Shown: in pieces, positions 9,084-63,935 of the stretch
How positions within the stretch are numbered: position 1 is the first letter of the stretch
How the letters are laid out: each line of letters begins with the position of its first letter
NCBI GenBank assembly: GCA_040766775.1
Contig: JAXGPT010000003.1
Span: 30,098-94,097, forward strand
Source of the DNA: Bacillota bacterium
Lineage (GTDB): Bacteria > Bacillota > Clostridia > Ch29
Reading direction: 5' to 3'
DNA: 64,000 bases
Notes under the pieces: model-generated
Told to the model about the DNA's origin: nothing
What the model saw: only the letters and a program-made list of their open reading frames with translations
Database searches by the model: none
Program-made: the position numbers and the translations under genes

Positions 9084-9108
9084 CAAGAGAAGGGAGGAAA
9101 TATTTTTC

Positions 9109-9392: not shown

Positions 9393-9412
9393 AGGGAAGG
9401 AGTGGTTTAACG

Positions 9413-9749: not shown

Positions 9750-9764
9750 GAAGGAGGGAAAGCC

Positions 9765-17762: not shown

Positions 17763-17794
17763 TAGGATTCGGTGAATGGAGGTATGAACACCTT

Positions 17795-18017
17795 ATGGCG
17801 AAGAAGGATGTTATAGAAGTGGAAGGTAAGGTCACGGAGGCGCTGCCAAACGCAATGTTTCATGTAGAGCTGGAGAACGGGCACAGGATTTTAGCCCATG
17901 TATCCGGAAAACTAAAGGATGCACTATATTAGGATTTTACCCGGTGACCGGGTAACGGTAGAACTGTCTCCCTACGACCTTACACGGGGTAGAATTGTAT
18001 GGAGAGGCAAAAGCTAA
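17795..18017 (+). pseudogene. infA: translation initiation factor IF-1, single 1-nt insertion (AAA run 17914-17916)
   Basis: [40 protein letters not shown], then frame shift and TAG at 17930. Removing one A restores [33 protein letters not shown]. Length is 223 nt (3n+1). Confidence 0.9.
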
Positions 18018-45943: not shown

Positions 45944-46687
45944 TGAAGCGAGATGGTATTCAAAGAACCAAGGAGGTTACAGGACAGTATTTCCATTACT
46001 GCCCGGGCTGCACCCATGGTATAATCCACCGGCTGGTTGCCGAGGTCAGCCAGGAACTGGGCGTCCTCGAAGGCTATCGGAGTTGCGCCAGTTGGATGCT
46101 CGGTTTCGCCTATGACTATTTCAACTGCGACATGCAGGAAGCCGCCCGGCAGGGCACCCGCGGTCGCTACCGGAACGTAAAGAGGTACATCCGGACAAAG
46201 TAGTGTTCACCTACCAGGAGATGGTGACCTTGCCTCCATAGGTACCGCCGAGATAGTACACGCAGCCATGAGAGGAGAAAAAATCACCACCATATTTGTC
46301 AACAACGCAATATACGGTATGACCGGCGGGCAGATGGCACCCACTACGCTGGTGGGCCAGAAGGCTACTACATCGCCCTTTGGAAGGGACAAGAACCATG
46401 CCGGTTCGCCCATAAGGATGAGCGAGATGCTGGCAACGCTGGAGGGGCCTGCTTATATAGAAAGGGTCACGGTAACCACGCCGGCCCATGTAAGGAAGGC
46501 CAAAAAGGCCATCAGGAAGGCCTTCGAAGCACAGATAGAGGGTAAAGGTTTTTCCATGATAGAAGTGCTGTCCACCTGTCCCACCAACTGGGGACTATCC
46601 CCCGTTGAAGCGCTTAGGTGGCTGGAGGAAAACATGATACCCTATTATCCGCTGGGAGTTTACAAAGCGCCCGAGGAGGTGAAATAG
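45943..46687 (+). pseudogene. 2-oxoacid:ferredoxin oxidoreductase beta (TPP-binding) subunit, frameshifts
   Basis: FHYCPGCTHGIIHRLVAEV...AYDYFNCDMQEAA, then shifts. 46268-46687 is intact ([19 protein letters not shown]). TAATG start overlap with the alpha subunit. Confidence 0.85.
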
Positions 46688-46690
46688 GAT

Positions 46691-47234
46691 ATGATAAACG
46701 AGCGTGTAATAATGAAATGGATTTGAGTAAGGGCGGCGATGTCCATGGTAAGCTTCTCACCTACGCGGGAATGATTGAAGGCAAGAATGTGTCCTGGCTG
46801 CCGTCCTGGTAGGAGATGCGGGGAGGCACCGCCAACTGTAATGTAATCATATCCGACAATCCCGTGGCTCTACGTTGTAACGGATGCAACCGCTGTAATA
46901 GCAATGAACAAGCCGTCGCTGGACAAATTTGAACCCGCTCTGTAGTAAAGGATGGGCTGCTGCTAATAAACAGCTCGCTCATCGACAGAAGTAAGAAAGG
47001 GACGACATAAAGGGCTTACCAGATACCTGCCAATGAAATAGCCAATGAGTTGGGCAACAGCAGGATAACCAACATGGTTATGCTGGGGTATCTCGAAAAT
47101 GCTCGTCATTAAAAGCGTACTGAAGCCCTAAAAAAGGTTTTCCAGAGGAGAGAAAAGCCCATTTGATACCCATAAACGAGGATGCCCTGAACAGAGCGCT
47201 TGGCAAAGTGGTCAAAACAAGCAGCTGCGGCTGA
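46691..47234 (+). pseudogene. 2-oxoacid:ferredoxin oxidoreductase gamma subunit, frameshifts
   Basis: Fragments KLLTYAGMIEGKNVSWLPS, EMRGGTANCNVIISDNPV, KDGLLLINSSLIDR and IPANEIANELGNSRITNMVMLG lie in different frames. Confidence 0.8.
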
Positions 47235-47269
47235 TAGGAAATATACCCGGCAGTTTTACCGGAGGGCTG

Positions 47270-47309
47270 AAAAGCAGCCCACCGCCAAAAAGGGGTGGGC
47301 TGCTTTTTT
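47270..47309. terminator. strong (bidirectional-type) intrinsic terminator
   Basis: AAAAGCAGCCCACC-gccaaaaagg-GGTGGGCTGCTTTT(TT), a 14-bp stem flanked by an A-run and a T-run. Confidence 0.9.
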
Positions 47310-47311
47310 AC

Positions 47312-49195
47312 GTTCGCCCGACATGAAGCAGTAACTAGGCGGTGAAAGTCCGCTATGGGCTCAGTAGTGGGAACGCCATTAGCTAAACAGCAAAGGTGTT
47401 CACCGTGAGGTGAAATCTGGAGAAGCTGCAGGCAAAGTCCCGCACCGACGGACAGGAACTGCATACAAGGCATACGTGGAACGGACGAGTTTGCATAACA
47501 AAACGAAGTCCAACACTACCCGAATTCCGGTGTAAATGCGGCGGTGACATGGGATGAAAGTTACTGTTCTTAATCGGGGAGGTCTGGCAGGTACGTCAGG
47601 CAGGGAATGAGATTTTCCCATGATAACCCATGCAGCGATGTATGGGCTGAGCTGTCAGAAGTCAGCAGAGAGTCATAGTACCATACCGGATATATACGGA
47701 ATGGGAAGGACCGAACGGAAGGATGTTTTGGTATTGTGAAGCACACTACGAAATGCGATGAGCGCAGCCAACTTCATACTGAAGACTACCTGTGTGAGGA
47801 TAGGGTGGAACCCGAAAGAAGCATGGGAGTGCAGAGTATTTCGTTTACGTCTTCAAAGACCAAAACGATGGCAATGAGTATGCCGAGCTTGCTTGATAAA
47901 ATACTTGACCGAGAACAACATGAACAAGGCATACAAGAGGGTTAAGTCAAACAAAGGCAGCCATGGAATTGATGGAATGACAGTAGATGAACTTCTACAG
48001 TTTCTGAAGAAAATGGTGAGCAAATCAGGCAGTGTATCCGGGAGGAGTACTTACAAGCTAAAACCTATGCGGCGGATAGAATGCCAAAGCCGGGCGGCAA
48101 AAGACTACTTGGCATACCAACAGTAGTGGACAGAGTAGTGCAACAGGCAATAGCCCAGTATTAAGCCCAATCTTTGAAAGCAGTTCTCGATTGAGCTATG
48201 AGTTCAGTAGGAAGGGACGCAAAACAGGCGGTATTGAAATGCAAGGAATACATAAACGAGCTACGACTGGGCTGTGGATATTGACCTTGCGAAATGCTGA
48301 TACCGTAAGCCGACAAGTCAGTGGTACAATCCATAAAACCGTTAAGGATAGGGGAGTAATATCACTTATCCGCAAATTCCTTCAATCAGGAGTAATGATA
48401 AATGGAGTAGTGGTGGAAACGGAAGAGGGCTGTCCGCAGGGTAGTACGCCAAGCCCGCTGCTATCCAATATCATGCTGAATGAACTGGATAAGGAACTAG
48501 AAAGAAGGGGGCTTAAATTCTGCCGGTACGCCGATGATGTAAACATATACGTCAGAAGCAGGAAGCCAGCAGAAAAAGTAATGGTAGTGTTACACGGTTA
48601 TCGAAGACGATTTAAAACTTAAGGTAAACCGTGAAAAGTACTGTTGATAGGTAGCAGCGGCTGAAATTTTAGGTTTCTCCTTTTACCGTAAAGATAGTGG
48701 TATAGGGATAAGGGTGCACCCAAGGTCACTAGCGAAGTTTAAATCAAGCTAAAGGAGATAACCTCAGGAGTAATGTTATGAGCATGGAATACAGGATATT
48801 TAAACTGAACCAGAGCATTACCGGCTGGGTAAACTACTTTAGCCTGGCGGACATGAAAGCAATAGCTGCTAAACTTGACGGGTGGATAAGGCGCAGGATA
48901 AGAATGTGCTACTGGAAGCAGTGGAAGAAAGTTAGTACAAGCACAGGAACCTTGTAAGGTTAGGTATAGACAACTACAAGGCATGGCAGTATGCCAACAC
49001 GAGGAAAAGCTACTGGCATACAGCCAATAGCTTTATCGCAGGCAAATCCATCACCAATGAATACCTGAAAAGTTTGGGTCTAAAGTCAGTATCCGAAAGA
49101 TATTCATTGATCCCATTAATATCTTTTCGAACCGCCGTATGCCGGACGGCGCATACGGTGGTGTGAGAGAACAGGGGTTAATCATCCCCTCCTAC
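47312..49195 (+). mobile_element. group II intron, bacterial class C (IIC), with decayed RT/maturase ORF
   Basis: The 5' end is GUUCGCCCGACAUG... Conserved blocks GAGUUUGCAUAACAAAACGAAGUCC, GGGGAGGUCUGG and AGAAGUCAGCAGAGAGUCAUAGUACC are present. Domain V is GAACCGCCGUAUGCCGGACGGCGCAUACGGUGGUG (49131-49164). These resemble the Oceanobacillus IIC intron as I recall it. The intron begins 2 nt after a terminator U-tract, the typical IIC target. Confidence 0.85.
47868..49110 (+). pseudogene. group II intron reverse transcriptase/maturase, many frameshifts
   Basis: LLDKIL..NMNKAYKRVKSNKGSHGIDGMTVDEL, LLGIPTVVDRVVQQAIAQ, GCPQGSTPSPLLSNIMLNELDKELERRGLKFCRYADDVNIYV (YADD) and ITGWVNYF occur in several frames. 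Confidence 0.85.
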
Positions 49196-49207
49196 TCCGA
49201 TTCCAGT

Positions 49208-50620
49208 TTAAAGACCTCCCTTCGGGTCCACCTTGACGTCCCTGGGGGTAAGCCATTGCCCCGTTTCCCGGCAAAGGGCATACCTTTTGCCAGTTCCCCC
49301 GACCGGGACATGGTCTTTATCTTTTCAAGGCATTCTATAAGCCGGTCTATATCCTTTTATTATAGGTAGCAAGGCTTACCCTTACCATGCCGGGATACGC
49401 TTAAGTCTCCGGCTCTTTTCTTGTGTATAAGCCGGGACAGCTGCTGTGGATTAAGTCCCAACAGGTGCAGCATGTAGGGCTGGGCGCAAAGCACCCGTTT
49501 CTAACGGCAATACCCCCTCCCCGGGGTAAGCGCGGCGTGCCGAGTAGTGGGGTAGCCGTCAGGTTGGTAATAACCCCCACCCTGTTCCCCGGTCCGGTTG
49601 GGATCGGTTTCGCCGTATACCGCAGAGCCCTTTGACTTCCCCCAGCCTTTTAAAGGGCATAGGAAGTAAACGGTTCTTTCATGGTTTTCAATGTTACGCA
49701 TGCCTTGCCTTTGCAAATATTGAATGGCGGATGCCAGTGCCACTGCCCCCACAACGTTGGGGGAGCCGAGCTCTTCCTGTCCGGAAGCCCGGCCATTCCA
49801 CCGTTTCCGGGGTAACCTTGTGTATTAACGGTGCCGCCGCCGGTGTACTCGGGAGCGCCCGTTAAAGGTCCTTTTTGGTCCTATAAGCCCCCGGTTCCAA
49901 AGGAGCGTACATTTTATGGGCGGAAAAAACGAGGTAATCAATATGTTCCGGGTGGTCGTCCGGGTTTATATCCACCGGTGAATGGGGCACAAGCTGGGCA
50001 CCGTCTACCAAGGATGGGTACCCCTGCGCGGTGGGCAATGGCAGCGGTACTTCCCACATCGTTCTTGAAACCGGTTACGTTGGAGGCCCCCGAGACGCTT
50101 ACAAAGTTTTTATCCTGCGCCCGTACCGCAGTTTGGTTTCCAGGTCATCCAGGTCAAGGGCGCCCCGCCGGTCAGCGCCGCCGGCGTACACCGCTGCCGC
50201 CTTGGACCTCCGGGGAAGGTCGTTGGAATGATGTTCCATCATGGTTGTGAGCACCAAATCCCCTTGGCGAGCCCCCAATCAGTAGGAGACCTTGTTTACC
50301 CGCTTCGGTGGCGTTTTTCACGAAAATTACGCAGTTGCTGGAAAAGTCCGCCTTTACAAAGCTGCCTACCACTTCGTGGGCTTCGTCGTATACATGGGTG
50401 GAGACTTGGGACTTGAAACCGGTGCCCCTGTGTACGCTGGAATACCAGTCCATGAACTCCAATTACGCTTGTCCAGTACCGGGCGCAGTACCGGGGTGCT
50501 GGCGGCATTGTCCAGGTTCACGTAAGATGCATATCCCTCCCCCGGCAAAGAGAACCTTCTTGTCTACCCACAATATCCCTGCGGAACCTTGCATGGTTAA
50601 ACCCTTCCCTTTTAAAACAT
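49208..50620 (-). pseudogene. aminotransferase class V-fold PLP enzyme (cysteine desulfurase-like), many frameshifts
   Basis: Minus-strand fragments: YVNLDNAASTPVLRPVLDK, EFMDWYSSVHRGTGFKSQVSTHVYDEAHEVVGSFV, VDGAQLVPHSPVDINPDDHPEHIDYLVFSAHKMYAP, GAVALASAIQYL. Confidence 0.8.
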
Positions 50621-50891
50621 GTTACATTCTCCTTTAAAAAATAAGCGCTAATACCATTATATGAACGGGGCGGAGTTTTGATTCCGCAGTGCCGCGGCAA
50701 AAATTCGCCGGCGGCGCGCCTTGCAAAAGTGCCCCCCCCAAAGCACAGGGGTTGCAGGCAGGATTGTAGTTACATAATATAATAAGGAGGGCAGTTTTTA
50801 ATGCCTATGGGATTTCAACCAATTGAAAAGCTATATTCGGTGTGATAATATTTAACCGTATTAGGCTGGCATACTAAGGACAGGAGATTGT

Positions 50892-52224
50892 ATGGGTAAA
50901 CTATTCGGAACCGACGGTGTAAGGGGAATAGCAAACGAGGAACTGACCAGCGACCTTGCATTCAAGCTTGCCCGGGCGGGAGCCGCCGTACTGAGCAGCG
51001 GGTAAAAGGTAAAGTTTGTACTGGGAACGGATACGCGCCTTTCTTCGGACATGCTGGAAAGCGCGATGGTCGCCGGGCTGTGTTCGGCGGGCAGCGATGC
51101 GGTGCTGGTGGGCGTGGTTCCAACACCGGCGGTGGTATACCTGATAAGGCACCTTGGCGCCGACGGGGTATTGTGATATCCGCTTCCATAATCCTGCCCA
51201 GTACAACGGGATAAAATTTTTCGACCGCCGCGGCTACAAGCTGGATGACCATTTGGAAGAGCCCAGTGGAAAAATTGTGCTGGAGGGTGCCGACGGGTTG
51301 TCGTGCACCGGCGTGAACTGGGCAGGAAAATAAACGAAACAAAGGGAGTAAAGTACTACGCGGACTCTCAAGGGCACGGTATCGGGAAATTTCGAAGGCA
51401 TGAGTGAAGCCGTTGACTGTGCCAACGGGGCGGCTTTTAAAGTGGCTCCCTTGGTACTGGAGGAACTGAAGACGAAGGTGAGTGTAATTAACGACTGCCC
51501 CGACGGGCTAAACATAAACGTGGAATGCGGGTCCACCCACCCGGAAGGATTGGCTTCCTTGTAGCCTTGAAGGAAAAGGGGGAAATCATGGACAGGGCTT
51601 GCCGCGACGGCGATGCCGACCGGCTAATCGCAGTGGACCACAGGGGCGAGATAATAGACGGTGACTATATAATGGCAGTCTGTGCCCAGCGGCAAGAGCC
51701 CGGAAACTTTCAAAGGATACCGTGGCAGCCACGGTGATGTCCAACCTGGGACTGCACCGGGCATTGGAGAAAATTGGCTGCGGGGTGGAGGAAACCAAGG
51801 TCGGGGACAAGTACGTGCTGCAGAGGATGATGGAGAAGGGATACAGCGCGGCGGCGACGATCGGGGCGTAATATTCCTGGACCTAAACACCACCGAGGAC
51901 AGCCTGACGGCACTCCAGCTTCTGGAGACCATTAAGTATTTCGGCAAAGCCTTTCCGGAACTTTGCAGCACCATGCAAAAATATCCCCAGGTCTGGTCAA
52001 CGCAAGGGTAGAAGTACGGACAGGAAGCTTACCGACAGGACCCGGTTATTTGCGCCGAGATTGAAAGGATACAAGACCAATTGAAAGGCAGCAGCTTGAG
52101 ATGCTTATAAGACCTTCAGGAACCGAGCCGCTGGTAAGGATTATGCTGGAGGGTAAGGATACGAGTAAAGCCCAGGCAGTATGCGGAAAACCTTGCAAAG
52201 CTGATTGAAACCCGCCTATCGTAG
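50892..52224 (+). pseudogene. glmM: phosphoglucosamine mutase, many frameshifts (probable assembly indels)
   Basis: [19 protein letters not shown]..., [39 protein letters not shown] and LIRPSGTEPLVRIMLEG are spread over three frames. 1333 nt against ~1347 expected. Confidence 0.88.
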
Positions 52225-52230
52225 AGACAG

Positions 52231-52249
52231 GGGACAGTTTCTTTGTCCC
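52231..52249 (+). repeat. hairpin GGGACA-gtttctt-TGTCCC (conserved-loop family relative)
   Basis: ACAGGGGACAGTTTCTTTGTCCC starts 7 nt after the glmM stop. Paralogous to 53770-53786. Confidence 0.6.
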
Positions 52250-52301
52250 GTTTGTACGTTTCGCGAAGGAGGCGATGGATGGAGATAGTCCCAAGGGTAT
52301 A

Positions 52302-52535
52302 AAGCGCCAGAACTCCTTAATCAGTAGGCACTTGCGCGGGTTGTGCGTCAAAACGCGGGTGTGCTAAAAGCGCCTATCGATTGCGTTTTACGTGCAGCGC
52401 GCCGCAGGCGCGTGGGGGAGTTGACGAAGGTCAGGGCTTATCGAGGCTTCATGGATAGGCCCGCGGTATCCTGCTGCTACCGTAAAGGCTCTACAAATCC
52501 ACCGGGCGACCGGCAGGACAAAGTCCGGGCAGTCA
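52302..52535 (+). ncRNA. glmS ribozyme: glmS ribozyme, copy 1
   Basis: AAGCGCCAGAACUCC...GGAGUUGACGAAGGUCAGGGCUUAUCGAGG...CCCGCGGUAUC...CUACCGUAAAGG...GGCAGGACAAAGUCCGGGCAG. It shares the core blocks of the glmS ribozyme and of copy 2, but has differences in the GGCGGAUG block. Confidence 0.8.
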
Positions 52536-52564
52536 ACAATACTGCTAAAAGGAGAAACACCGAT

Positions 52565-53669
52565 ATGAATAAAGCGGATAAAAGGGTTATCCCCATTATA
52601 TGCTAAAGGAGATATACGAACAGCCGGAAGTGATAGAAAACACCCTGAAGGACAGGACAATACCGGGAGCGAAGACATAAATCTAGCGATATAAAACTAA
52701 CCCAAAGCGACCTTGACGGGGTGCACAGAATGGTTGTGATTGCATGGCACGTCCTATCACGCGGGGCTTGCCGGCAAATACCTCATTGAAAAGTTCGCCG
52801 GGATACCGGTGGGGGGGGAAATAGCCTCAAGGTTCGGTACCGGGACCCGGCGGTGGATAAAAACAACCTGATAATAGCAATAAACCAGTCCAGGAAACCG
52901 CCGACACCTTGGATACAATGAGAAGGCAAAGCAAGTGCCCGCATCATTGCCATATCAAACGTGGCGGGAAGCACCATACCCAGGAGGCGGACCACTCCCT
53001 CTATACCTGTGCAGAGCCGGAATTTCGATAGCCTCCACCAAGGCCTTACACGTCATGATTAATTACCCTTTATTTACTTACGTTGAAACTGAAGCCCAAT
53101 TAAAGGGCAGGACGGGATTGACCGAAACATACCGGCAGAAGCTGGAGGCAGCACAGGCAGCCTGCCGGAAGAGCGCGAAAATTAACTGGACTGTTCGGGA
53201 GAAATGAAAGAGCTGGTAAGACTCGGCATAAGGATATGGAAAAGATTATATACCTGGGTAAAATCCTTGATTACGCATTAGTACGCCAGGGGTCATTGAA
53301 GCTGAAAAGAGACGTGTTATATACATTCGGTAACTTACCCGGCGGGCGAGTTCAGGCACCCGAGCATATGGCGCTGGTGAAGAAAGGGCTTTTTGTATTT
53401 TCCTTGCCACCCAGGATGCACTGCTAGGCAAGTCTCTGGTAAATTTGCGGGAAATAAAGGACGGGGAAGCCTGCGTGGTAGCCCTGAGCAGGGCTGACCG
53501 GGAAGTCGGCGAAGCGGCAGACAGGGTAATATATGTTCCGGAAGTACCGGATGAATTCACCTCGGCGCCGGCGGTAAATACCCCTGCGGTTGTTTTCTTC
53601 ATGGCGGCTTGTGAGGACACGATATTTGACAAGCCGCGAAGCCTGGTTAAAAGCGTCACCGATTCATAA
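52565..53669 (+). pseudogene. glutaminase-less GlmS homologue (two SIS isomerase domains only; GlmD/NagB-II-like), many frameshifts
   Basis: ATG after GGAG, then MNKADK + [54 protein letters not shown]-like, GSLKLK, and ADRVIYVPEVPDEF...KPRSLVKSVTDS-TAA. Colinear with residues ~245-609 of the downstream glmS. No MCGIVG glutaminase domain. Confidence 0.75.
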
Positions 53670-53693
53670 TCATAGGGACGGTTCTTTTGATTA
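53667..53693 (+). repeat. conserved-loop hairpin family copy (stem TAATCA/TGATTA, loop TAGGGACGGTTCTTT)
   Basis: Starts on the stop codon of the glmS-like ORF. Confidence 0.7.
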
Positions 53694-53748
53694 CATTTCA
53701 TTGAATTTATTATAAAGCCGAATATTGAATAACAAAGTTGGACACTGT

Positions 53749-53788
53749 ATGGGACGAGGGATGGGGTAAGGGACGTTCTTTGTCCCAT
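53749..53788 (+). repeat. hairpin ATGGGAC...GTCCCAT containing AGGGACGTTCTT (family relative)
   Basis: The inner alternative is GGGAC-gttcttt-GTCCC at 53770-53786. The flanks are paralogous to 52231-52260. Confidence 0.55.
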
Positions 53789-53871
53789 TTGTCAATTATG
53801 TAAAAGGGGTGGTGCGGTAAAGAATATGCAATTGGGAAAGGAGAGGAGGTGACAGCAGATATTAAAAAAAC

Positions 53872-54105
53872 AAGCGCCAGAACTCCTTAATCAATGAACG
53901 CTTGCGGGTGTGCGCCAAAATGCGGGCGTGCTGAAGCGCCTGTCAACCGCGCATTGCGTGCAGCGCGCTGCGGGCATTTGATAGCGGAGTTGACGAGGGT
54001 CGGGGCTTATCGAAGTTTTCGGCGGATGGCCCCGCGGTATGCTGCTACCGTAAAGGCCTTACAAATCCGCCGGGCGACCGGCGGGACAAAGTAGACCGGG
54101 CAGCA
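53872..54105 (+). ncRNA. glmS ribozyme: glmS ribozyme, copy 2
   Basis: AAGCGCCAGAACUCC...GGAGUUGACGAGGGUCGGGGCUUAUCGAAGUUUUCGGCGGAUGGCCCCGCGGUAUGCUGCUACCGUAAAGG...AAAUCCGCCGGGCGACCGGCGGGACAAAG, about 30 nt upstream of the glmS ATG. Confidence 0.88.
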
Positions 54106-54136
54106 ACGAAAAATCCCTAAAGGAGAATACAAGACT

Positions 54137-55966
54137 ATGTGCGGTATAGTTGGATATATAGGCAGCAAAGACGCAACACCCATCCTGATTGAAGGCTTAA
54201 GAAGGCTTGAATACAGGGGATACGATTCGGCCGGGGTAGCCGTTTATAACGAAGGCAGGGTCCAGGTGAAAAAGTACAAGGGCAGGCTGGATGTGCTGGA
54301 GGGCCGGATTAGGGAAAACCCCATCCTGGGAAACTTAGGGATCGGGCATACCCGGTGGGCCACCCACGGCGAACCGTCGGATGTGAATTCCCATCCCCAG
54401 ACAAGTTCCGGCGGGGATATAGCCATTGTACACAATGGCATAATAGAAAACTTTATGCCCCTTAGGGAATGGTTGTGCTATGAAGGGTACGAATTCCGGT
54501 CGGATACCGATACCGAGGTGGTAGCCCACCTCATAGACCATTTCTATGAAGGGGACCTTGTGAAGGCGGTTATAGAGTGCATGAAAAGGTTGAAGGGGTC
54601 CTTCGCGCTGGGGATAATAAGCTCTGACGAGCCGGATAAACTGGTGGCGGTAAGAAAGGACAGCCCGCTTATAGTAGGCATCGGCAGCGGCGAAAACTTC
54701 ATAGCGTCGGACATCCCCGCCATACTAAACCATACCAAGCGGGTTTACCTGCTGAACGATATGGAAATAGCGGTTTTGAGCAAAGAGGGCGTGAAAATAC
54801 TGGACCATAATGGTGCGCCGGTACAGAAGGAAGTGTTTGAAGTTACCTGGGACGTGGCCGCTGCCGAAAAGGGGGGCTATCCCCATTTCATGCTGAAGGA
54901 AATGTTCGAGCAGCCCACCGCCCTTAGGCAAACCCTCAAGTCCCGGCTTATATCCGAGAACGACGACATAATACTAGACATGATAAGGATTAACAAAGAG
55001 GACCTTGACAGGGTGGACAAAATAAACATCGTGGCCTGCGGCACCGCGTACCATGCGGGGGTTGTGGGAAAACATCTTATAGAAAGGCTGGCGAGGATTC
55101 CCGTCGAGACGGACATCGCCTCCGAGTTCCGCTACAGGGACCCGATACTTGATAAAAACAGCCTTGTAATGGTTATAAGCCAGTCGGGAGAAACCGCCGA
55201 CACCCTCGCGGCCATGAGGGAAGCCAAGCGGAAAGGGGCCAGGGTTATTGCCGTTACCAACGTGGTGGGAAGTACCGTGTCCAGGGAAGCCGACGACCTA
55301 TTGTATACCTGGGCGGGGCCGGAAATTGCGGTAGCCTCCACGAAGGCCTATACGACGCAGCTTTTGGCCATGTCGCTTATAGCCCTGAAACTTGCCAGCA
55401 TAAAGGGTGAAATAGACGAGGAGCTTTACAGCAGTATGAGGGAGGCCATATACAGGCTCCCGGAACAGGCGCAGCAGGTTGCTGGAAAAGGCGGAGGAGA
55501 TAAAGGCCCTTTCGGAGGAATACAAGGACGTTGACAAGGTGTTTTTCATAGGCCGGTCGCTGGACCATGCTGTGGCCATGGAAGGGTCGTTAAAGCTTAA
55601 GGAAATATCCTATATATTTTCCGAGGCCTATGCGGCCGGGGAACTTAAGCACGGCACCATAGCCCTTGTGGAGGACGGGACGCTGGTATTTGCCCTGGCC
55701 ACCCAGGACAGGCTGTTCGAGAAGTCGGTCAGCAACATGAAGGAGGTAAAAGCCAGGGGAGCCCAAGTAATAGCCGTTGCCAAGGAGGGAAACAGGGAGG
55801 TTGAAAAGGTGGCGGACCGGGTCATATACATCCCGGATACGCTGGACCTTTTGACCCCGGTGCTGACGGTGATACCGCTGCAGCTTTTTGCCTACTATAT
55901 AGCGGTGGCCCGGGGCTGTGACGTTAGCAAGCCCAGAACCTAGCCAAAAGCGTCACCGTGGAGTAA
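54137..55966 (+). pseudogene. glmS: glutamine--fructose-6-phosphate aminotransferase, two compensating 1-nt indels near the 3' end (probable assembly errors)
   Basis: MCGIVGYIG...intact to ~55478. An extra T at 55479-55480 shifts the frame, which resumes as LEKAEEIKAL...(55479-55943). A missing A at 55937-55938 hides the C-terminus NLAKSVTVE-TAA (stop at 55964-55966). Total length is 1830 nt, i.e. 609 codons plus stop. Confidence 0.9.
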
Positions 55967-56000
55967 TCAAGGGTAATCTGGGGACAGTTCTCTTGATTAC
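55963..56000 (+). repeat. conserved-loop hairpin family copy (stem GTAATCAAG/CTTGATTAC, loop contains GGGGACAGTTCT)
   Basis: Overlaps the glmS stop codon. 9-bp perfect stem. Confidence 0.7.
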
Positions 56001-56097
56001 TATTTGCATACTCGCGTATAGCAGTATATGTTGATTTAAGCCCATGAAATGTATGCAGGGGCAACCTGAGGTCTTTCACGGGCTTTTAATTACGGAA

Positions 56098-56123
56098 GTA
56101 ATTAGGACGGTTCCGTTGATTAC
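56098..56123 (+). repeat. conserved-loop hairpin family copy (stem GTAAT/ATTAC, loop TAGGACGGTTCCGTTG)
   Basis: Third copy of the GTAAT(C/T)A...TGATTAC arm type. Lies 49 nt upstream of the RayT-like ORF. Confidence 0.6.
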
Positions 56124-56171
56124 AAAAACATGCATAGTATAATATTTACAAAAATAATAGAGGTGACAGGA

Positions 56172-56930
56172 ATGCCACGGACCCCAAGGAGGAAAAGCAA
56201 AAGCGGTGTATATGTATAATAATTGAGGGAGCAAATAAGCAGGAATTATTTCATGATGATAAGGACCGATTAGTTTCTGGATACAGTGGAAAGGTATAAA
56301 ATTCAAACCGGGATGAATATGGTTGGTGCCTGATGAATAATCATATACACCTTTTATTGCAAGAAGGCAAGGAAGACTTGGCCATTACCATGAAGAGAAT
56401 AGGAGTAAGCTACGTTTGGTATTATAATTTGAAATATAGTACAACAGGGCATTTATTCCAGGACAGATATAGGAGCGAGAATGTTGAAAGTGATGGATAC
56501 CTTTGCCGTGATTTCGCCTACATACATCAAAACCCTGTAAGGCGAAACATAAAGCGACCTTCGGACTGGAAGTGGAGCAGCTGCCAAAGCATATTATAGG
56601 AATAGGTAGTTATAAACGAATTACTAGACAATTGAGTTAATACTTGGATTGTTTCTGAGACAAAAATACTGCAATAAGAAAATTTAGAAGTTTAATGAAA
56701 TAGAAAACAACGATAAATGCCTGGACGATGATGTATTCATTAAATTAACAGACAAAACAGTTGGAAATAGAAAAGATAAATCCAAAAATTAATATAGCGC
56801 AAGTAAAGAGCCTGCCAAAGAATCAAAGGATGAAATAATTAGAAAGGCCAAGTGTATTGAGTATAACTGCAACGGCAATTAGGGCGGATATTTGCTGCCG
56901 GAATTTTCCGCATGTTAGACAGGTCAATTT
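56172..56930 (+). pseudogene. IS200/RayT-like Y1 (HUH) transposase with C-terminal HTH region, many frameshifts
   Basis: MPRTPRRKSKSGVY, ELFHDDKDR, then the intact block MNNHIHLLLQEG...GHLFQDRYRSENVESDGYL..YIHQNPV (HUH and catalytic Y motifs). Downstream fragments DKCLDDD, LTDK and DEIIRKAKCIE are in other frames. Confidence 0.75.
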
Positions 56931-57027
56931 ACCCTAACGGGGCCGGGCCTGCACAAGTTCGAATGGGTGGAACCATGACGGAGGGGATACCGTCTAAACT
57001 GGCAGCAAATAAAAGAGGGTGGGCTGT

Positions 57028-57573
57028 ATGAAGCGGAAGAAAATATTAACGTTAATCCTGGTTTTGGCAATAATGCTGGCGGGTTGCTCCCAGGCCGGAG
57101 CCAACCTGGAAGCGGCAGATGCAGAGCCTATGGTATTTGAAGCAGGAGATGAAAACTTCGCTATTAAAACCTACATCAATAAGCTGGAATTTGATGAGGG
57201 TGAGGAGATTAAGCTGCACTCTACCATTGAGTATATAGGCCAAAACGAAAGCATCGCGATTTGGTCGGGGGAGCCTTACTTTCACCATTTGATACATGAC
57301 GGCGACAAGTATATAAATAGCGATATTGTCCTGGGTATATTAAAGGAAACGGTTTTAAAGAAAGGCGAAGTCTATACGATACCCTTTTCCAAAAGCGGTG
57401 GGTTCACCCGGGAAGACCCGGATGCGGAGTTCTGGGAGAAGTACTTCTCGGAGAAAGAGCTGAGGCTGCCCACCGGGGACTACACCTTTACGGCGGTAAC
57501 GGATTTTTGCCTGGACATGGACCAGGAGGAAAAAGTAACGTTAAGAACAGAGTTTAAAGTTAAAGTAAAATGA
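57028..57573 (+). CDS. hypothetical lipoprotein
   Basis: MKRKKILTLILVLAIMLAGC lipobox. No family recognised. Confidence 0.6.
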   Translation: MKRKKILTLILVLAIMLAGCSQAGANLEAADAEPMVFEAGDENFAIKTYINKLEFDEGEEIKLHSTIEYIGQNESIAIWSGEPYFHHLIHDGDKYINSDIVLGILKETVLKKGEVYTIPFSKSGGFTREDPDAEFWEKYFSEKELRLPTGDYTFTAVTDFCLDMDQEEKVTLRTEFKVKVK

Positions 57574-57735
57574 TTACAGGGCTAAATAGTACAGGGCTCT
57601 AATTTGAGTTAGTAATTCCGATGATAGGAAAGCCCCGGCTGGCCCAAGTCCGACTGTTCCGGCAAAAGCAGGCGCAAAAATTATAAAAGCAAGTTTTTAA
57701 GCCAGTAAAGTTCATATTATATGGAGTGGAATAAG

Positions 57736-58239
57736 ATGAAAAAAACAGTCATGTACGCCGTTGTAATTGTTGCCCTTGTTGTGTTGTTTCCCGGATGCTA
57801 TATGCTCCAAACGGAAAAAGATGATTCTGAACCAAAAAAGATAGAATCCATACCATTTCTCAAGGACCAATTATATGCTGTGGCGTATTTAGGGTATAAT
57901 GAAATAGGTGAACTTTCATTTTATATACAAGAATATTTAGACAGCGAAAATATACCTATTCATTATATATCAAAAGGAGAATATTATCTTGTAATACCTA
58001 GGTATTCAAATATGTCATTATCATTGTATAAAAATGATATCCAAACGATGGATTCAACATTAATATTTGAAGAAAAAGAATGTCGTCCGTTTATAATTCA
58101 ATGTAATGTGAGCGATATTTTTCCGGATGCAACAATTCGCTTTGCTTATAACGATGAAACCATTGAATTTTCACCATATATCTCATTAAAAGATGGAACA
58201 GTTGTGGTTGGAGACAGAGGTATAAATATAACAAAATAG
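57736..58239 (+). CDS. hypothetical lipoprotein (low-GC)
   Basis: MKKTVMYAVVIVALVVLFPGC lipobox. AT-rich codon usage unlike the core genes. Confidence 0.55.
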   Translation: MKKTVMYAVVIVALVVLFPGCYMLQTEKDDSEPKKIESIPFLKDQLYAVAYLGYNEIGELSFYIQEYLDSENIPIHYISKGEYYLVIPRYSNMSLSLYKNDIQTMDSTLIFEEKECRPFIIQCNVSDIFPDATIRFAYNDETIEFSPYISLKDGTVVVGDRGINITK

Positions 58240-58247
58240 GTTTTGGC

Positions 58248-58272
58248 CGCGGCGTCCAGCCGCGTATTTTTT
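58248..58272 (+). terminator. intrinsic terminator
   Basis: CGCGGC-gtcca-GCCGCG followed by TATTTTTT. Confidence 0.7.
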
Positions 58273-58381
58273 ATAGCATATGATTTGGGTATTGGTTCAT
58301 ATTGATAGGATTATGTGCGAAAAAAATTAAACAGAAACATTTTGCTATGGTGTACCGAACAATAAAAAACAACAGAGTTGG

Positions 58382-58410
58382 TTGACATCTACGGATAAAA
58401 AGCATAGAAT
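58382..58410 (+). promoter_or_regulatory. sigma-A promoter TTGACA-17-TAGAAT
   Basis: Exact -35 with 17-nt spacer, about 25 nt upstream of the M-box. Confidence 0.7.
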
Positions 58411-58431
58411 GAAATAGAAAATTGAATAAAA

Positions 58432-58585
58432 TCTCGGTAGGCGAGGCTACTACAAGGATACGGGTTGCTGCCGTAAAAGAGTGGAAACACTCTGCACTGG
58501 TAAGCAGGTTTTGCCGAACAGAGAAGGCTTAATCTAATGCGACTTCATTGCCTTGTAGAGCCAAAACTTGAACGGGGAAGTCTTA
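58432..58585 (+). promoter_or_regulatory. M-box (ykoK-type) magnesium riboswitch
   Basis: GGUAGGCGAGGCUACUACAAGGAUACGGGUUGCUGCCG...CCUUGUAGAGCCAAAACUUGAACGG matches the M-box blocks GUUAGGUGAGGCUCCUGUAUGGAGAUACGCUGCUGCC...CAUACAGUGCUAAAGCUCUACGA as I recall them from B. subtilis mgtE. Confidence 0.8.
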
Positions 58586-58592
58586 CATTAAT

Positions 58593-58627
58593 GCCTTCGT
58601 CATGTTCAAGTTTGGCGAAGGCTTTTA
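58593..58627 (+). terminator. riboswitch expression-platform terminator
   Basis: GCCTTCG-16 nt-CGAAGGC followed by TTTT. Confidence 0.7.
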
Positions 58628-59111
58628 GTATTCGGAGGTGAGAAGAATGGAATCTGGCAGTGATAGTATGGTCTATGGAGAAAAAAGCATATATTATTAT
58701 AGAAAAAATAGAACTATAACTGTCAAACTCTATTCTTCTCTAATAAGAGTTTGTTAAATATTATGATTCAAATTCTGTTTTTTCATATATGCTTTTCTTT
58801 GAGAACAAATCTCCATTACCACCCATGACAGTTTCTTTGATAAAGGCAGTTTACAGGACTATTTGATTTGAAACTTAAACAAAATAATCGTTTTTTATAG
58901 GTTAAAAGCTTATTTGTTAATCTTTAGTTTCTCATCGCTTTTTTGGAACGTTCTTAGCTATTATTTTGTTTTGTAAATGATTAAAGAAGGTGGAGGTGGT
59001 AGTTATGGATTTTGACCCTTTACCCAGTAATTTTAATGAAAAAAGGAATAATAAATTTTGGGCCATAACTACCAATCGGGTAGTGTGGCTCTGTCAAAGG
59101 GGAGCTACAAA

Positions 59112-60446
59112 ATGAAAGAAATGATTCTCAATCTTATTGAGAAGGGTAAATATGCTGATGTAAGAAAAGAAATCGTTGACATGAATGTTGTTGACATCGC
59201 ACAACTTTTTGAAGAGTTAGACAAGCAGAAACTATTAGTGGTATTAAGGATACTGCCTAAGGATATGGCATCAGGTGTTTTCTCTTATATACCTAATGAA
59301 CTACAAAAATATATAATTGAATCTATTACTGATAAGGAAATCAAGAATATTTTCGATAAACTATTTTTTGATGATACAATTGACTTTTTAGAAGAAATGC
59401 CGTCAAACATAGTAAAGAAGGTTCTTAAGAATACAGATGAAGATACAAGAATACTTATCAATCAATTCTTGAACTATCCTGAGAATTCAGCTGGAAGCAT
59501 AATGACTATAGAGTTTGTTGACTTAAAAAAGGAAATGACAGTAAAACAAGCAATACAGCACATTAAGGAAACAGGGGTAGACAAGGAGACAATTTATACT
59601 TGCTATGTTATTGACAATAATAGAAAACTTGAAGGTGTCATATCAACTAGAAAACTAATATTAAGTGAAGATACGACAATAGTTAGAGACATTATGGAAA
59701 AAGATGTTGTGTATATTAACACTTATGATGACCGGGAAAAATCACATCATTATTTAAAAAATATGACTTCCTTTCAATGCCTGTAGTTGATAGCGAATGT
59801 AGGTTAGTTGGTATAGTGACAGTAGATGACATTGTAGATATTATAGACCAGGAAAATACCGAAGATTTTCAGAAGATGGCTGCTATGCAGCCTTCTGAAA
59901 AAGAATACTTGAAGACAAATACAATGGTATTAGCAAAGCATAGGATAATCTGGCTTTTAATCTTAATGATTTCTGCAACCTTTACAGGAAATATTATAAG
60001 AAAATTTGATGAAGTATTGCAGTCATTTGTGGTGCTTGCTTCATTCATCCCAATGCTCATGGATACAGGAGGAAATGCTGGTTCCCAATCATCAACACTC
60101 ATAATCAGAGGATTAGCTATAGGAAAAATTAGGCCTAAAGATGTTTTTAAGGTACTATGGAAAGAACTCCAAGTAAGCTGCCTTGTCGGAATAGCCCTAA
60201 CTGTTGTAAATTTTGTAAGGATATATTATTTTGGAAAGACTGACTTATTAATATCTGTAACTGTATGCATCACCTTGTTTTTTACAGTTATGTTGGCAAA
60301 AATTGCAGGTGGGATCTCTACCTATTATAGCAAAAATATTTAAGATAGACCCTGCGATTATGGCAAGTCCACTAATAACAACCATTGTCGATGCCTTGAC
60401 TCTTATTTTATATTTTTCAACTGCTACATGGTTATTAAGTATATAG
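59112..60446 (+). pseudogene. mgtE: magnesium transporter MgtE, two compensating 1-nt indels
   Basis: N-domain plus CBS pair plus TM domain (MDTGGNAGSQSSTL). The A-run at 59737-59741 lacks one A (restores REKITSLFKKYDFLSMPVVD). An extra base near 60315 hides the C-terminus LPIIAKIFKIDPAIMASPLITTIVDALTLILYF. Total length is 1335 nt. Confidence 0.88.
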
Positions 60447-60645
60447 ATTTGAAAAAACCATTTTATATTATGACATTGATATCAGGCAGCAGGCCGTCCG
60501 GAAGGACGGTTATTGTATTAGTTCCGGCATGGAGGGGAAAATAATATTGCGAGCAAAAAGGAAATTTTCATAAAGGAGGCAAAAAAGGTTACCGGATAAT
60601 ACAAAAAAGGTTAAATCTCTTAACCGGCTTTTACAGGGAGAGTAC

Positions 60646-61026
60646 ATGGCAGTAGAGAGTTTTAATACCTTTATATCCAGGGCTAAAGATGAAAATGTGA
60701 AGAAAACTTTCCAGGCGGTCCAGAAACAGCATAGGAGAAACATCGAGAAATTAGCAGGCTATATTCAGGACATAGGCGGGCGGCCCCACGAAAACCTTGG
60801 GATAAAGGGTAAAATGGCTGACATGAAGGTCAACATAGACCTCGGCTTAAGGGGTGACACCGATGAAATAATAAAAAAAGCGGTGGAGGGTGAAACCCAG
60901 GGAGTGAACATGGCAGAGAAGGTTCTAAGGGGCAGCCTGGATGATAAATCCAGGGATATTGCAGGTGAGATACTGCATAAGGACAGAAGATCTATTGATG
61001 AATTAAACAGTTTGAAGAACAGGTAA
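60646..61026 (+). CDS. DUF2383/ferritin-like four-helix-bundle protein
   Basis: 126 aa. The in-frame upstream codons KKVKSLNRLLQGEY look like part of the protein, but no start codon is visible there, so the N-terminus is uncertain. Confidence 0.5.
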   Translation: MAVESFNTFISRAKDENVKKTFQAVQKQHRRNIEKLAGYIQDIGGRPHENLGIKGKMADMKVNIDLGLRGDTDEIIKKAVEGETQGVNMAEKVLRGSLDDKSRDIAGEILHKDRRSIDELNSLKNR

Positions 61027-61434
61027 TTGGGCAGCCCCTTGGCCGCCCCATTTCTATAAGCGGTGCAAAGAATGCTTTTACTTGAATGCATTACCCATAG
61101 ACAATAAAATAATAATAAGAATAATTGCCAAATTTAGGACTAGAATGATATAAGGGAGACATCGGCGGGTATTTATGATATAAGGTTTGATACCCGCGGG
61201 TGTTGTGGACAATATCCCTTTATTATTCACAGGGCTCTCACAGGCAGTTTTAGGCGAAGGCTAAACAGGGGTTGGAACTAACCGGGATGCTGCAGAACGG
61301 GACCTTAACGGAAGAGGGTATCGCACGCCTGACCGGGCCGGTCCGGAAATACCGAATACCCGGCACGGGGGATAAGGGGGTGTGGCAGTGCGGTGTGCGC
61401 GTACCAAAGATTGTGAAAAAAGGGAGGACGACGG

Positions 61435-62058
61435 ATGAAACATGAATGGAAAAAGCATGAAAAAAACTTGTACATGCCCGGGCAAAAACCGGAGATTATT
61501 ACTGTGCCGGAGCAGAAGTTTTTTATGATAGGCGGGCAAGGGAATCCGAACAGCGAAGAATTTGCACAGAGGGTGGGCGTTTTGTATTCCCTTTCCTACG
61601 CCGTCAGGATGATGCCAAAGCAGGGGTATACCCCGGAAGGATATTTCGAATATACGGTATACCCGCTGGAAGGCGTATGGGACCTGACAGAGGAGGGGAG
61701 GAAGGCGGATGTGCTGGACAAGGAGCAGCTGCTCTATACCATAATGATTAGACAGCCGGATTTTACTACAGAAGAGGTGGCGTATAGGGCCCTTGAAACG
61801 GTTCAGAAGAAAAAACCGCATCCGCTGCTGGATGAAGTGACTTTTGGAACAATGGAGGACGGGCTGGCGGTGCAAATGCTTCATATTGGCCCCTATGATG
61901 ATGAACCCAGGACCTTTGAAGTTATGAAGGATTTTATTGAAAATAATAATCTTGAGGTTGCTACCATGAAACACAGGGAAATATACCTGTCGGATGCAAG
62001 AAAAACAGAACAGGCAAAGCTCAAAACGGTTTTAAGATATAGGGTGAAGCCGAAGTAA
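61435..62058 (+). CDS. GyrI-like small-molecule-binding domain protein
   Basis: 207 aa: QKFFMIGGQGNPN...LHIGPYDDEPRTFEVMKDFI, typical of GyrI-like/YdeE-type proteins. Confidence 0.75.
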   Translation: MKHEWKKHEKNLYMPGQKPEIITVPEQKFFMIGGQGNPNSEEFAQRVGVLYSLSYAVRMMPKQGYTPEGYFEYTVYPLEGVWDLTEEGRKADVLDKEQLLYTIMIRQPDFTTEEVAYRALETVQKKKPHPLLDEVTFGTMEDGLAVQMLHIGPYDDEPRTFEVMKDFIENNNLEVATMKHREIYLSDARKTEQAKLKTVLRYRVKPK

Positions 62059-62253
62059 TGAGTTCGGTTCCACGGAAAACTCAAAAAATGGACCGGGGAG
62101 GAGAAACGATGTGTCCGGCGCGCCTTTGCAGCATCCCATATGGTACCGGCCAAGGAGAGGCTGTTCAAAGAAAACATATTTCAAAGGGCAGGCAAATAAC
62201 ATAATATCCGCTGAATTTCAGGAAATATTATTATTTAGTATGTTCCGAAGAAA

Positions 62254-62262
62254 CGGGACCAT
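62254..62262 (+). repeat. 9-bp target-site duplication CGGGACCAT (left)
   Basis: An identical 9-mer at 63828-63836 directly abuts the IS ends. Confidence 0.8.
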
Positions 62263-63827
62263 GTTAGTGTAAAATTACTTTGGGAAAAAACCAAAAAATA
62301 AAAGATAAGAGTATCTCTCCTGTGATATCATGTAATTTGTGAAAGAACCACAATAAACACAGAAAAGGAGATACTCTTATGGAACTAATTATACAGGAAA
62401 TCATAGAAAAAATCAGTAGTTGTTTTGAAAAAGAACTAGAGAATCTGATAGGTGAAAGAAGAGACATATCCGAATTTATTCTAGCTACTAAGAAGACGTT
62501 GGACGAGATTGGGGTAACCTTAGTGGCCGAAGCCTTGGAAACAATAGACGAGGCGTATAGAAACAGTAAAGATCGGAAACGAAACTGGACAGTAAAGGAG
62601 AAAGCGGCTGAAAAGACCCTTATGACAATATTTGGCGAAGTAAGGTATGAAAGGACATATTACAAGAATAAAAAGACAGGCGAATACAGCTACCTGTCAG
62701 ATGAGGCTGTGGGCATAAAAGCCCATGATAAAATGGATGCTTCACTAAAGGCAAGGCTCATAGAGGAAGCAGTATTTATGCCCTATAGTAGAAGTGCAAA
62801 GGAAGCAGCTGAAGCTGTGGATCTAACATCACAGACAGTAATGAACAGTATCCGTGAGCTTGGCAGTATAGAGAATGATGCGGTAGAGATAAAGCAAGAT
62901 AAAAAGGCAGTAAAAGTACTGTACATAGAAGCTGATGAAGATCATGTACCACTTCAGGCTGGAGGCTACGCAGAACCAAAGCTTGTATATGTGCATGAGG
63001 GCAGGAAACAGGTTGGTAAAGACCGGTGGAAGCTAATAAATGCGAGGTATTTCAGCGGTATTTATGCAAACAGTGATGAGCTATGGGTAGAAGTTTTAGA
63101 CTACATAGATAAGACTTATGATATGGATACTATTGAAAAGATATACCTATCAGGGGATGGAGCTGCATGGATAAAGAATGGACTAGGCTGGATAAAGGGA
63201 AGCATCTTTGTACTGGACCGTTATCACTTATCAAAGTATGTAACACAAGCTACAGCGCATATGGACTATACCACACCCATCATGTGGGACTATATAAACA
63301 GCGGCGATAAAGATAGTGTAAAAGAGCTATTTAAAGCAATCATAAGTACAACTGAGCCGGAAACAAAGAAGAGAGCTGTGCAGGAAGCAAGAAGATATAT
63401 ACTAGGCAACTGGGAAGGTATAATGCGGCAGTACGGGGCGGATTATATCGGCTGCAGTGCAGAAGGTCATGTAAGCCATATCTTGTCGTCCAGGTTAAGC
63501 TCACGGCCTCTGGGCTGGAGTAGAATAGGTGTGGACCAGATGGCCAGGTTAAGGGTCTTTGTAGCGAACGGCGGAAATGTATATGACATATTTATGCAAA
63601 AGAAAAAAGCAGCAATAGATGAAGCAAGGGAGGTAAAAGTGGACCGTGAGATTATCAGGAAGAGAAAGCTTACAGCATCGCGCGAAACCATCGGTAACAT
63701 AACCATTTTGAATATTGGAAAAAGGACTTGGGCTTCCCAGTTCCTCAAGTCAGTGAGGGATGCTTAAAGTAGCAGGTTAACAGGAGATTACTTTTATTTT
63801 TAAAACCCATAGTATCTTGACGCTATC
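62263..63827 (+). mobile_element. ISLre2-family insertion sequence, apparently intact
   Basis: 1565 bp with imperfect terminal IRs (GTTAGTGTAAAATTACTTTGGG vs the reverse complement GATAGCGTCAAGATACTATGGG, 16/22). A second internal IR pair brackets the ORF. Flanked by a 9-bp TSD. Confidence 0.85.
62379..63767 (+). CDS. ISLre2 family transposase
   Basis: Uninterrupted 462 aa (TIFGEVRYERTYY, YIEADEDHV, VLDRYHLSKY), UPF0236/ISLre2-type. Confidence 0.85.
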   Translation: MELIIQEIIEKISSCFEKELENLIGERRDISEFILATKKTLDEIGVTLVAEALETIDEAYRNSKDRKRNWTVKEKAAEKTLMTIFGEVRYERTYYKNKKTGEYSYLSDEAVGIKAHDKMDASLKARLIEEAVFMPYSRSAKEAAEAVDLTSQTVMNSIRELGSIENDAVEIKQDKKAVKVLYIEADEDHVPLQAGGYAEPKLVYVHEGRKQVGKDRWKLINARYFSGIYANSDELWVEVLDYIDKTYDMDTIEKIYLSGDGAAWIKNGLGWIKGSIFVLDRYHLSKYVTQATAHMDYTTPIMWDYINSGDKDSVKELFKAIISTTEPETKKRAVQEARRYILGNWEGIMRQYGADYIGCSAEGHVSHILSSRLSSRPLGWSRIGVDQMARLRVFVANGGNVYDIFMQKKKAAIDEAREVKVDREIIRKRKLTASRETIGNITILNIGKRTWASQFLKSVRDA

Positions 63828-63836
63828 CGGGACCAT
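63828..63836 (+). repeat. 9-bp target-site duplication CGGGACCAT (right)
   Basis: Identical to 62254-62262. Confidence 0.8.
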
Positions 63837-63935
63837 TACGGAATTGACGAAATAAGGTGTGTTTGATAATATGTGTAACTAACAGTATTGTGCACACCCT
63901 TTCCATGAAAATGATTTTAGAAAAGGAGAAACGAG

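Follow-up and report, generated by a model that had tools for sequence, protein, structure and literature searches.

Among metabolite-dependent ribozymes, the glmS ribozyme is the textbook case, and it is also a candidate antibiotic target, partly because it is thought to control glmS alone; in 2011, McCown et al. reportedly placed all but two of the known glmS ribozymes in glmS mRNAs. In Bacillus, cleavage activated by glucosamine-6-phosphate (GlcN6P) down-regulates glmS (PMC5473149). Within the GlmS protein, ammonia reaches the isomerase domain by a channel from the glutaminase domain, and the GlcN6P deaminases can run backwards, sustaining uridine diphosphate N-acetylglucosamine (UDP-GlcNAc) (PMC10138107). 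The stretch of DNA analysed here (the window) comprises 64,000 nucleotides from a Bacillota bacterium of the Clostridia (contig JAXGPT010000003.1 of GCA_040766775.1, positions 30,098 to 94,097). In it, a conserved glmS ribozyme precedes a different protein, a GlmS stripped of its glutaminase domain and reduced to its two SIS domains (the SIS-only protein). Full-text literature searches found no published description of a glmS ribozyme with a SIS-only, glutaminase-less or truncated GlmS; the initial annotation of this DNA had likewise been aware of no described case.

A scan of the whole window with the Rfam covariance model RF00234 (gathering threshold GA 37 bits) detects two glmS ribozymes, both on the + strand and both spanning model positions 1-167. 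Ribozyme 1 (52292-52540) scores 46.6 bits (E 1.1e-7) and has a P1-loop insertion of ~85 nt; ribozyme 2 (53862-54107), which contains a P1 insertion too, scores 95.0 bits. Both leaders exceed the threshold, and the two separate units of ribozyme plus open reading frame (ORF) that had been proposed are borne out. Ribozyme 2 is located in the 5' leader of a true glmS (54137-55966, + strand), which encodes an ordinary 609-residue GlmS starting, as had been read, with MCGIVGYIG; two residual frameshifts are present, at ~55480 and ~55940. Ribozyme 1 instead precedes the glutaminase-less gene (52565-53669, + strand; stop codon at 53667-53669), whose true product has 370 residues and which shows at least 15 artefactual frameshifts here. 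As had also been suggested, this gene has its own ribosome-binding site (RBS), aaaggag at 52547-52554, and its own ATG at 52565. The same RBS and ATG (52547-52567, + strand), read from the sequence, recur in loci L097, L010, L012 and L093-L096.

In a frameshift-tolerant alignment with the repaired unit-2 protein, the unit-1 ORF matches GlmS residues 247-607 only (window 52585-53660), with 15 frameshifts and 173 of 347 residues identical (50%). No glutaminase-coding sequence is present upstream of the unit-1 ORF: ribozyme 1 abuts the RBS and occupies the gap between it and the end of glmM at 52224, and a missed glutaminase domain therefore has no room. The claim that unit 1 encodes only the two-SIS part of GlmS is thus upheld.

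The frameshifts of unit 1 and the low score of ribozyme 1 in the window are assembly noise. Locus L097 provides a clean copy of the window's downstream haplotype. There, ribozyme 1 (8494-8741) scores 92.8 bits, which rules out decay as the explanation of the 46.6 bits; the SIS-only ORF (8770-9879) is an intact 370 residues, 99.2% identical to protein cluster P0001; ribozyme 2 (10071-10319) scores 93.9 bits; and glmS is intact at 609 residues, with an N-terminal domain 99% identical to that of the window. The initial annotation had allowed for either an assembly casualty or a true pseudogene. Given the intact L097 copy, the first stands, and the second is contradicted by a ratio of nonsynonymous to synonymous substitution rates (dN/dS) of 0.06-0.20 in the family.

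When the repaired unit-1 sequence is used as the query of a protein search, this family proves to be a coherent one. All 12 best clusters (90% identity; P0001-P0012) are SIS-only, and they belong to one clade of uncultured Clostridia. Their called lengths are 347-407 residues and their true length is ~363-371, the 388- and 407-residue gene calls being start errors that read through the ribozyme. The clusters are 54-79% identical to the noisy unit-1 query (P0001, 79%), compared with at most 50% for full-length GlmS, and Pfam recognizes SIS domains only. Among clean sequences, P0001 and the C-domain of its cognate GlmS are 61% identical. A neighbour-joining tree places the family as a monophyletic group with a long stem beside the clade's own GlmS, in agreement with the old paralogy previously proposed. 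A profile search of contigs with the family alignment, keyed on the generic GlmS peptides ACGTSYHAG and ISQSGETA, found at least 80 loci; among the matches listed, all were at most 53% identical and none was a SIS-only member, and the 15 that were translated were ordinary GlmS frames of 608-684 residues. An apparent second case, P0035 (L011, 5265-7110), a "369-aa SIS protein" behind a 119-bit ribozyme, was rejected, since a run of N divides what is really a full glmS; the short GlmS-like entries of metagenome catalogues should be checked for such splits.

The N-termini of the SIS-only proteins read MCGIEKNGYPHYM, MCGIEKNGYPH, MCEIEKSGYPH, MGEIEKNGYPH or MNKADKRGYPH, with MCGI or MCEI running into EKNGYPHYM. 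They consist of the first four GlmS residues, MCGI, joined to the EKGGYPHFM motif of GlmS residues ~243-251, a junction that marks a single in-frame loss of the glutaminase domain from a duplicate of the ribozyme-glmS unit. The history shown by gene comparison is as follows: in an ancestor of the clade, the unit glmM-[glmS ribozyme]-glmS underwent tandem duplication; the upstream copy then lost codons ~5-242, the whole glutaminase domain, in frame; and what remained was a two-SIS isomerase of 370 residues with a full glmS ribozyme of its own in front. Pairwise dN/dS among the SIS-only genes is 0.06-0.20 over a dS of 0.15-3, and the corresponding values for the cognate GlmS C-domain are 0.035-0.09. 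The SIS-only gene is under purifying selection, ~3-fold more relaxed than that on GlmS, and in all the other assemblies examined, across all 12 clusters, its ORF is unbroken.

Profile hidden Markov models (HMMs) with NCBIfam curated cutoffs were used to assign the protein to a class. P0001 exceeds the cutoffs of both GlmS models (TIGR01135 / NF001484), with 455.5 bits against 381 and 445.5 bits against 418, and P0011, at 412.1 bits, is just under the TIGR01135 cutoff. The match is restricted to profile positions 243-605, and the N-terminal class-II (Ntn) glutaminase with Cys1 is absent. With the NagB-II equivalog model (NF046059), the SIS-only proteins reach 148-152 bits, far under the cutoff of 430, and with the GlmD model (NF041128) 111-123 bits, far under 580. 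As judged by these profiles, the SIS-only protein is a truncated GlmS and not a member of NagB-II or GlmD, the deaminase families to which the initial annotation had related it. The database name of P0006, P0008, P0009 and P0010 is "glutamine--fructose-6-phosphate transaminase (isomerizing)" despite their lack of a glutaminase domain (for P0006, the name comes from PGAP), because the whole-protein HMM score exceeds the GlmS cutoff.

The isomerase active site is retained. The alignment of P0001 to 1MOQ, the E. coli isomerase domain, covers its whole length (E 7e-90; P0001 4-368 = E. coli 243-606), and in 19 of 19 family sequences the ten isomerase and phosphate-binding residues S303, S347, Q348, S349, T352, E481, K485, E488, H504 and K603 (E. 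coli numbering) are invariant. Relative to 20 GlmS proteins, the family is set apart by eight substitutions: V309A, T407S, S490C, E495A, L502F, K503R, A602V and V607D. Most of these family-specific substitutions flank E488, H504 or K603. The family also retains the GlmS C-terminal tail with K603, within which the ammonia-channel-door residues are altered (A602V, V607D).

Ribozyme 1 is conserved along with the gene. Orthologues scoring 90.7-103.9 bits are found directly 5' of the SIS-only gene in L001, L005-L009, L012, L097, L101, L103 and L107, and they are kept where SIS-only is the sole gene behind a ribozyme (L001, L008 and L009). Compensatory changes are seen at 9 of 40 predicted pairs among six orthologues from six species. 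AAGCGCC, GACGAGG, UUAUCGA and UUCGGCGGAUG occur as core strings in the clean copies, and cleavage is predicted between A and GCGCC. By these signs ribozyme 1 is genuine and selectively maintained, and from its position, score and covariation we infer that it controls the SIS-only gene. The core has nevertheless been lost twice. In L093-L096, the strain that matches the clean flanks of the window, a ~120-nt deletion (~17700-17830) seen in four independent assemblies removes the P2/P2.1 core; in L004 (5860-5990) and L098 (1790-1900, minus strand), only a P3/P4 remnant is left. These two independent deletions constitute a natural series on the loss of ribozyme control. The P1-loop insertion, ~85 nt and G+C-rich, is present in both window ribozymes (52320-52410 and 53890-53980) and also in L001, L007, L012 and L097; it is found in neither ribozyme of L005, L008, L009 and L103, and in ribozyme 2 only in L007. 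This pattern suggests gene conversion between the two ribozyme copies, or repeated loss.

A family-specific DNA pattern for HSAAYxxGEFRHGP found 11 metagenome contigs. Synteny across the clade is conserved (POR, an aminotransferase on the minus strand, glmM and SIS-only), and the SIS-only gene always comes directly after glmM. A second ribozyme and glmS are present downstream of it in L005, L006, L007, L012, L097, L101, L104, L105 and L093-L096. In three lineages (L001-L003, where gcvT is next; L004; and L008 and L009), glmS is absent for at least 6 kb downstream. The related species of L108 and L114, whose GlmS is 84-85% identical, have the canonical glmM-ribozyme-glmS arrangement without a SIS-only gene. 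Thus, three states occur after glmM: ribozyme-glmS alone, both units, and SIS-only without a nearby glmS (with the ribozyme-1 core lost in L004). The gene calls of the fetched loci include no nagA, nagB or PTS gene.

At about even odds (a probability of roughly 0.5), the SIS-only protein is a feedback-repressed, ammonia-dependent GlcN6P synthase. It would bind fructose-6-phosphate (Fru6P) at the unchanged GlmS isomerase site (S303, S347-S349, T352, K485, E488, H504, K603). Because the domain from which the channel starts is missing, this site should be open to solvent ammonia; thus uncapped, it would allow amination of Fru6P by free NH3/NH4+, and the resulting GlcN6P would feed GlmM. Accumulated GlcN6P would then trigger self-cleavage in the two ribozymes, each independently of the other, and the downstream mRNA would be degraded, as in Bacillus glmS, so that the two routes to GlcN6P would be separately feedback-repressed. 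The ammonia route would save the ATP of glutamine synthesis and might pay off in ammonia-rich habitats. The initial annotation had seen two implications, a feedback-repressed ammonia-dependent route and an unexpectedly repressed deaminase, and the first fits the evidence better. An OFF switch triggered by GlcN6P amounts to negative feedback if the enzyme is a synthase and to destabilising positive feedback if it is a deaminase, which points to Fru6P amination. The glmM-adjacent biosynthetic context, the three-state pattern and the lack of a GlmS cluster for the L001 species also support a synthase.

A further step, less likely than not, is that the SIS-only enzyme has fully replaced glutamine-dependent GlmS in the species of L001, L004 and L008/L009, as a dedicated ammonia-dependent GlcN6P synthase with the ribozyme carried over. 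In a collection of 5.8 billion proteins, a full-length GlmS search together with accession look-ups found the canonical relatives, no clade-type GlmS cluster with the accession prefixes of the L001 species and no GlmS attributable to a species with SIS-only alone, which is suggestive and not proof. A protein search with the glutaminase domain as the sole query returned only short partial proteins of at most 67% identity and was uninformative for the species of L001, L004 and L008.

Several points weigh against an ammonia-dependent synthase and its replacement of GlmS. The direction of catalysis is one that we purely infer. For E. coli GlmS, the reported use of exogenous ammonia is poor or absent, and efficient NH3-dependent activity would thus need adaptation; E495A, L502F, K503R and A602V are candidate adaptive positions. 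The dN/dS of the SIS-only gene is ~3-fold above that of the cognate GlmS C-domain. The deletion of the ribozyme-1 core in two lineages (L093-L096; L004/L098) has left the SIS-only ORF intact in both; ribozyme control is therefore not universal, and feedback is dispensable in those two lineages. A scan for sigma-70 promoters and terminators gave nothing convincing upstream of either ribozyme, and hence no promoter for either unit. Finally, a complete absence of glmS is not established for any genome, given that the metagenome-assembled genomes (MAGs) are incomplete and the look-ups were at the protein level.

Three alternatives that keep the SIS-only protein functional are less consistent with the context than the synthase. 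The best of them, which is nonetheless unlikely, is a catabolic deaminase of the NagB-II/GlmD kind that converts GlcN6P to Fru6P and NH3 and is repressed by its own substrate via the ribozyme. The reaction is reversible, and low ammonia favours deamination. There is, in addition, weak HMM similarity to NagB-II and GlmD, and the only characterised free-standing two-SIS relatives of GlmS are deaminases (PMC10201695). However, the HMM scores are far under the equivalog cutoffs (148 vs 430; 111 vs 580), genes for nag or chitin utilisation are not nearby, and the gene occupies a biosynthetic slot between glmM and glmS. Repression triggered by the substrate would amount to positive feedback on a toxic intermediate, and some lineages have dropped the adjacent glmS and yet kept the SIS-only gene.

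Somewhat less probable still is a modulatory subunit. Since GlmS dimerises through its isomerase domains (PMC10138107), the SIS-only protein might form heterodimers with full GlmS through the same interface, where H504 acts across subunits, and so tune the enzyme, inhibit it or admit free ammonia. The adjacency of the SIS-only and glmS genes in several lineages and the looser constraint relative to GlmS would suit such a role. On the other hand, three lineages (two with the ribozyme) keep SIS-only without glmS within at least 6 kb, and a purely regulatory partner needs no full conservation of catalytic and phosphate-binding residues.

A split GlmS, in which the SIS-only protein is paired with a separately encoded class-II glutaminase subunit, is very improbable. 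The sole point in its favour is the general precedent of split amidotransferases; no GATase_6/7 gene adjoins SIS-only in any locus, the one apparent split (P0035/L011) is the N-interrupted full glmS described above, and the channel-door residues of the C-tail are changed (A602V, V607D). Weakest of all is the reading of unit 1 as a functionless decaying duplicate, a pseudogene from the tandem ribozyme-glmS duplication, which is already refuted at the family level and retains almost no probability: at least 15 frameshifts in the window ORF, only 46.6 bits for ribozyme 1 and a core deleted in two lineages would favour it, but the frameshifts extend evenly across 9 kb, POR and glmM included, most of them are homopolymer indels, and the same strain's clean contigs lack them; the ORF, moreover, is intact in all other assemblies examined and in the 12 clusters, with a dN/dS of 0.06-0.20 and invariant catalytic residues.

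The 9-kb block of broken genes described by the initial annotation is real (~45.0-54.0 kb), and it is one of noise, the same genes being intact in clean contigs. Mismatch and indel profiles per 500 nt against L095 and L097 define it as a noisy chimeric block (45000-54000) with an indel-rich consensus. The clean conspecific contigs, which share the window's butyrate kinase exactly and include one of 2.6 Mb from GCA_900198705.1, have intact genes for the POR subunits, the class-V aminotransferase, GlmM (465 residues), the SIS-only protein (370 residues) and GlmS (609 residues). The window's identity to L095 is 100% at 32.8-44.9 kb, followed by 5-13% mismatches and 2-7% indels per 500 nt at ~45.0-54.0 kb. 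Compared with L097, there are 2-9% mismatches and 2-5% indels at 49.2-54.0 kb, and at 54.0-55.5 kb the identity is 99.5% with no indels. Of the indels relative to L097, 75 of 103 deletions (73%) and 56 of 85 insertions (66%) adjoin an identical base.

A 1.86-kb group II intron (47345-49203, + strand) sits in the middle of this block, between the POR and aminotransferase genes. It is recognized by the Rfam models group-II-D1D4-3 (135.7 bits) and D1D4-1 (64.8 bits), with matches at 47399-47711; it is absent from the conspecific L093-L096, and the L095 alignment breaks at 47345/49203. On the upstream side of the intron, the window resembles L095 and is 5-10% different from L097. With L095-like sequence upstream, L097-like sequence downstream and noise between them, the window is therefore a chimeric consensus, joined via an uncorrected long-read-like stretch. 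The intron probably caused an assembly break that was bridged by a noisy long read. Gene calls within the block (POR subunits, aminotransferase, glmM and unit 1) are unreliable. The problem recurs at ~55500-56000. At 39000-39500, in a sigma-54 activator gene within the region that is otherwise 100% identical to L095, 23 mismatches and no indels look like a patch of local recombination or strain variation.

Upstream of the two units, the phosphoglucosamine mutase gene glmM (50892-52224, + strand), whose start can be read, is broken here through sequencing noise; an intact 465-residue glmM with four PGM_PMM domains occupies the same position in L094/L095. Directly 3' of its stop codon is a short hairpin, GGGGACAGTTTCTTTGTCCC (52230-52249, + strand), one copy of a recurrent post-stop motif. 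This motif, GGGACRGTTCTYTTG, occurs in 6 copies on the + strand (0.5 expected), at 3943, 28607, 35628, 52231, 53675 and 55981. At least four of these are a few bases past a stop codon, namely those of EF-Tu, glmM, the SIS-only gene and glmS. Some copies form a GGGAC...GTCCC hairpin, and L095 has TAGGGACAG three times upstream of one copy. The motif could be a lineage-specific terminator or processing element.

Beyond glmS, a low-GC stretch of ~8 kb (56000-63900; 33-43%) extends to gcvT. Because gcvT follows the SIS-only gene by only ~600 nt in L001, this stretch looks like an insertion. It contains a UPF0236/ISLre2-type transposase (62379-63767), two unannotated lipoprotein-like ORFs, and an M-box riboswitch (58426-58584; 110 bits) upstream of mgtE (59058-60343). 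The mgtE gene is divided between two ORFs that overlap, one for MgtE_N+CBS (59058-59786) and one for the MgtE domain (59777-60343), which implies a frameshift beyond the main noisy block.

If the SIS-only protein does make GlcN6P from free ammonia, this would overturn the view of the step as one that requires glutamine and would provide an ATP-saving route for ammonia-rich anaerobic habitats. If it has also replaced GlmS, it would be the first member of the glmS-ribozyme regulon besides GlmS, and its hosts would be the first free-living bacteria without a glutamine-dependent GlmS. The lineages with both genes or either gene, and with or without the ribozyme, would then represent a natural experiment on the gain and loss of riboswitch control.

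Relative to the canonical Bacillota unit (cdaA-cdaR-glmM / glmS of B. subtilis), the locus is alike in RNA family (90-104 bits in clean copies), in the position of the ribozyme directly 5' of the RBS, and in neighbourhood, with cdaA, a YbbR-domain gene (CdaR) and then glmM upstream. Unit 2 is a typical case of that arrangement, and L108 and L114 have it alone; the difference is that ribozyme 1 stands before a glutaminase-less protein, giving two ribozyme-ORF units in series. A review counts glmS as one of the riboswitch classes for which tandem arrangements have never been seen (PMC9481103), by which it means neighbouring aptamers within a single leader, unlike the arrangement here. NagB-II of Shewanella (PDB 3HBA/8EOL) and GlmD of Thermococcus kodakarensis are, like the SIS-only protein, free-standing two-SIS homologues of the GlmS isomerase, and they share with it the catalytic Glu and trans-acting His (PMC10201695). 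NagB-II is distant, however (E 4e-33 to 8EOL vs 7e-90 to E. coli GlmS), and the SIS-only family differs from both in having the GlmS C-tail with K603, in lying outside a nag/chitin cluster and in its place behind a GlcN6P-repressed ribozyme. The closest protein is the isomerase construct of E. coli GlmS (241-608; PDB 1MOQ/1MOR/1MOS), with which the SIS-only protein is colinear throughout and identical at all active-site residues. That construct was made in the laboratory, whereas the SIS-only version is natural, conserved and separately regulated, with eight family-specific substitutions. What is new is the combination of an ordinary glmS ribozyme with an isomerase-only GlmS.

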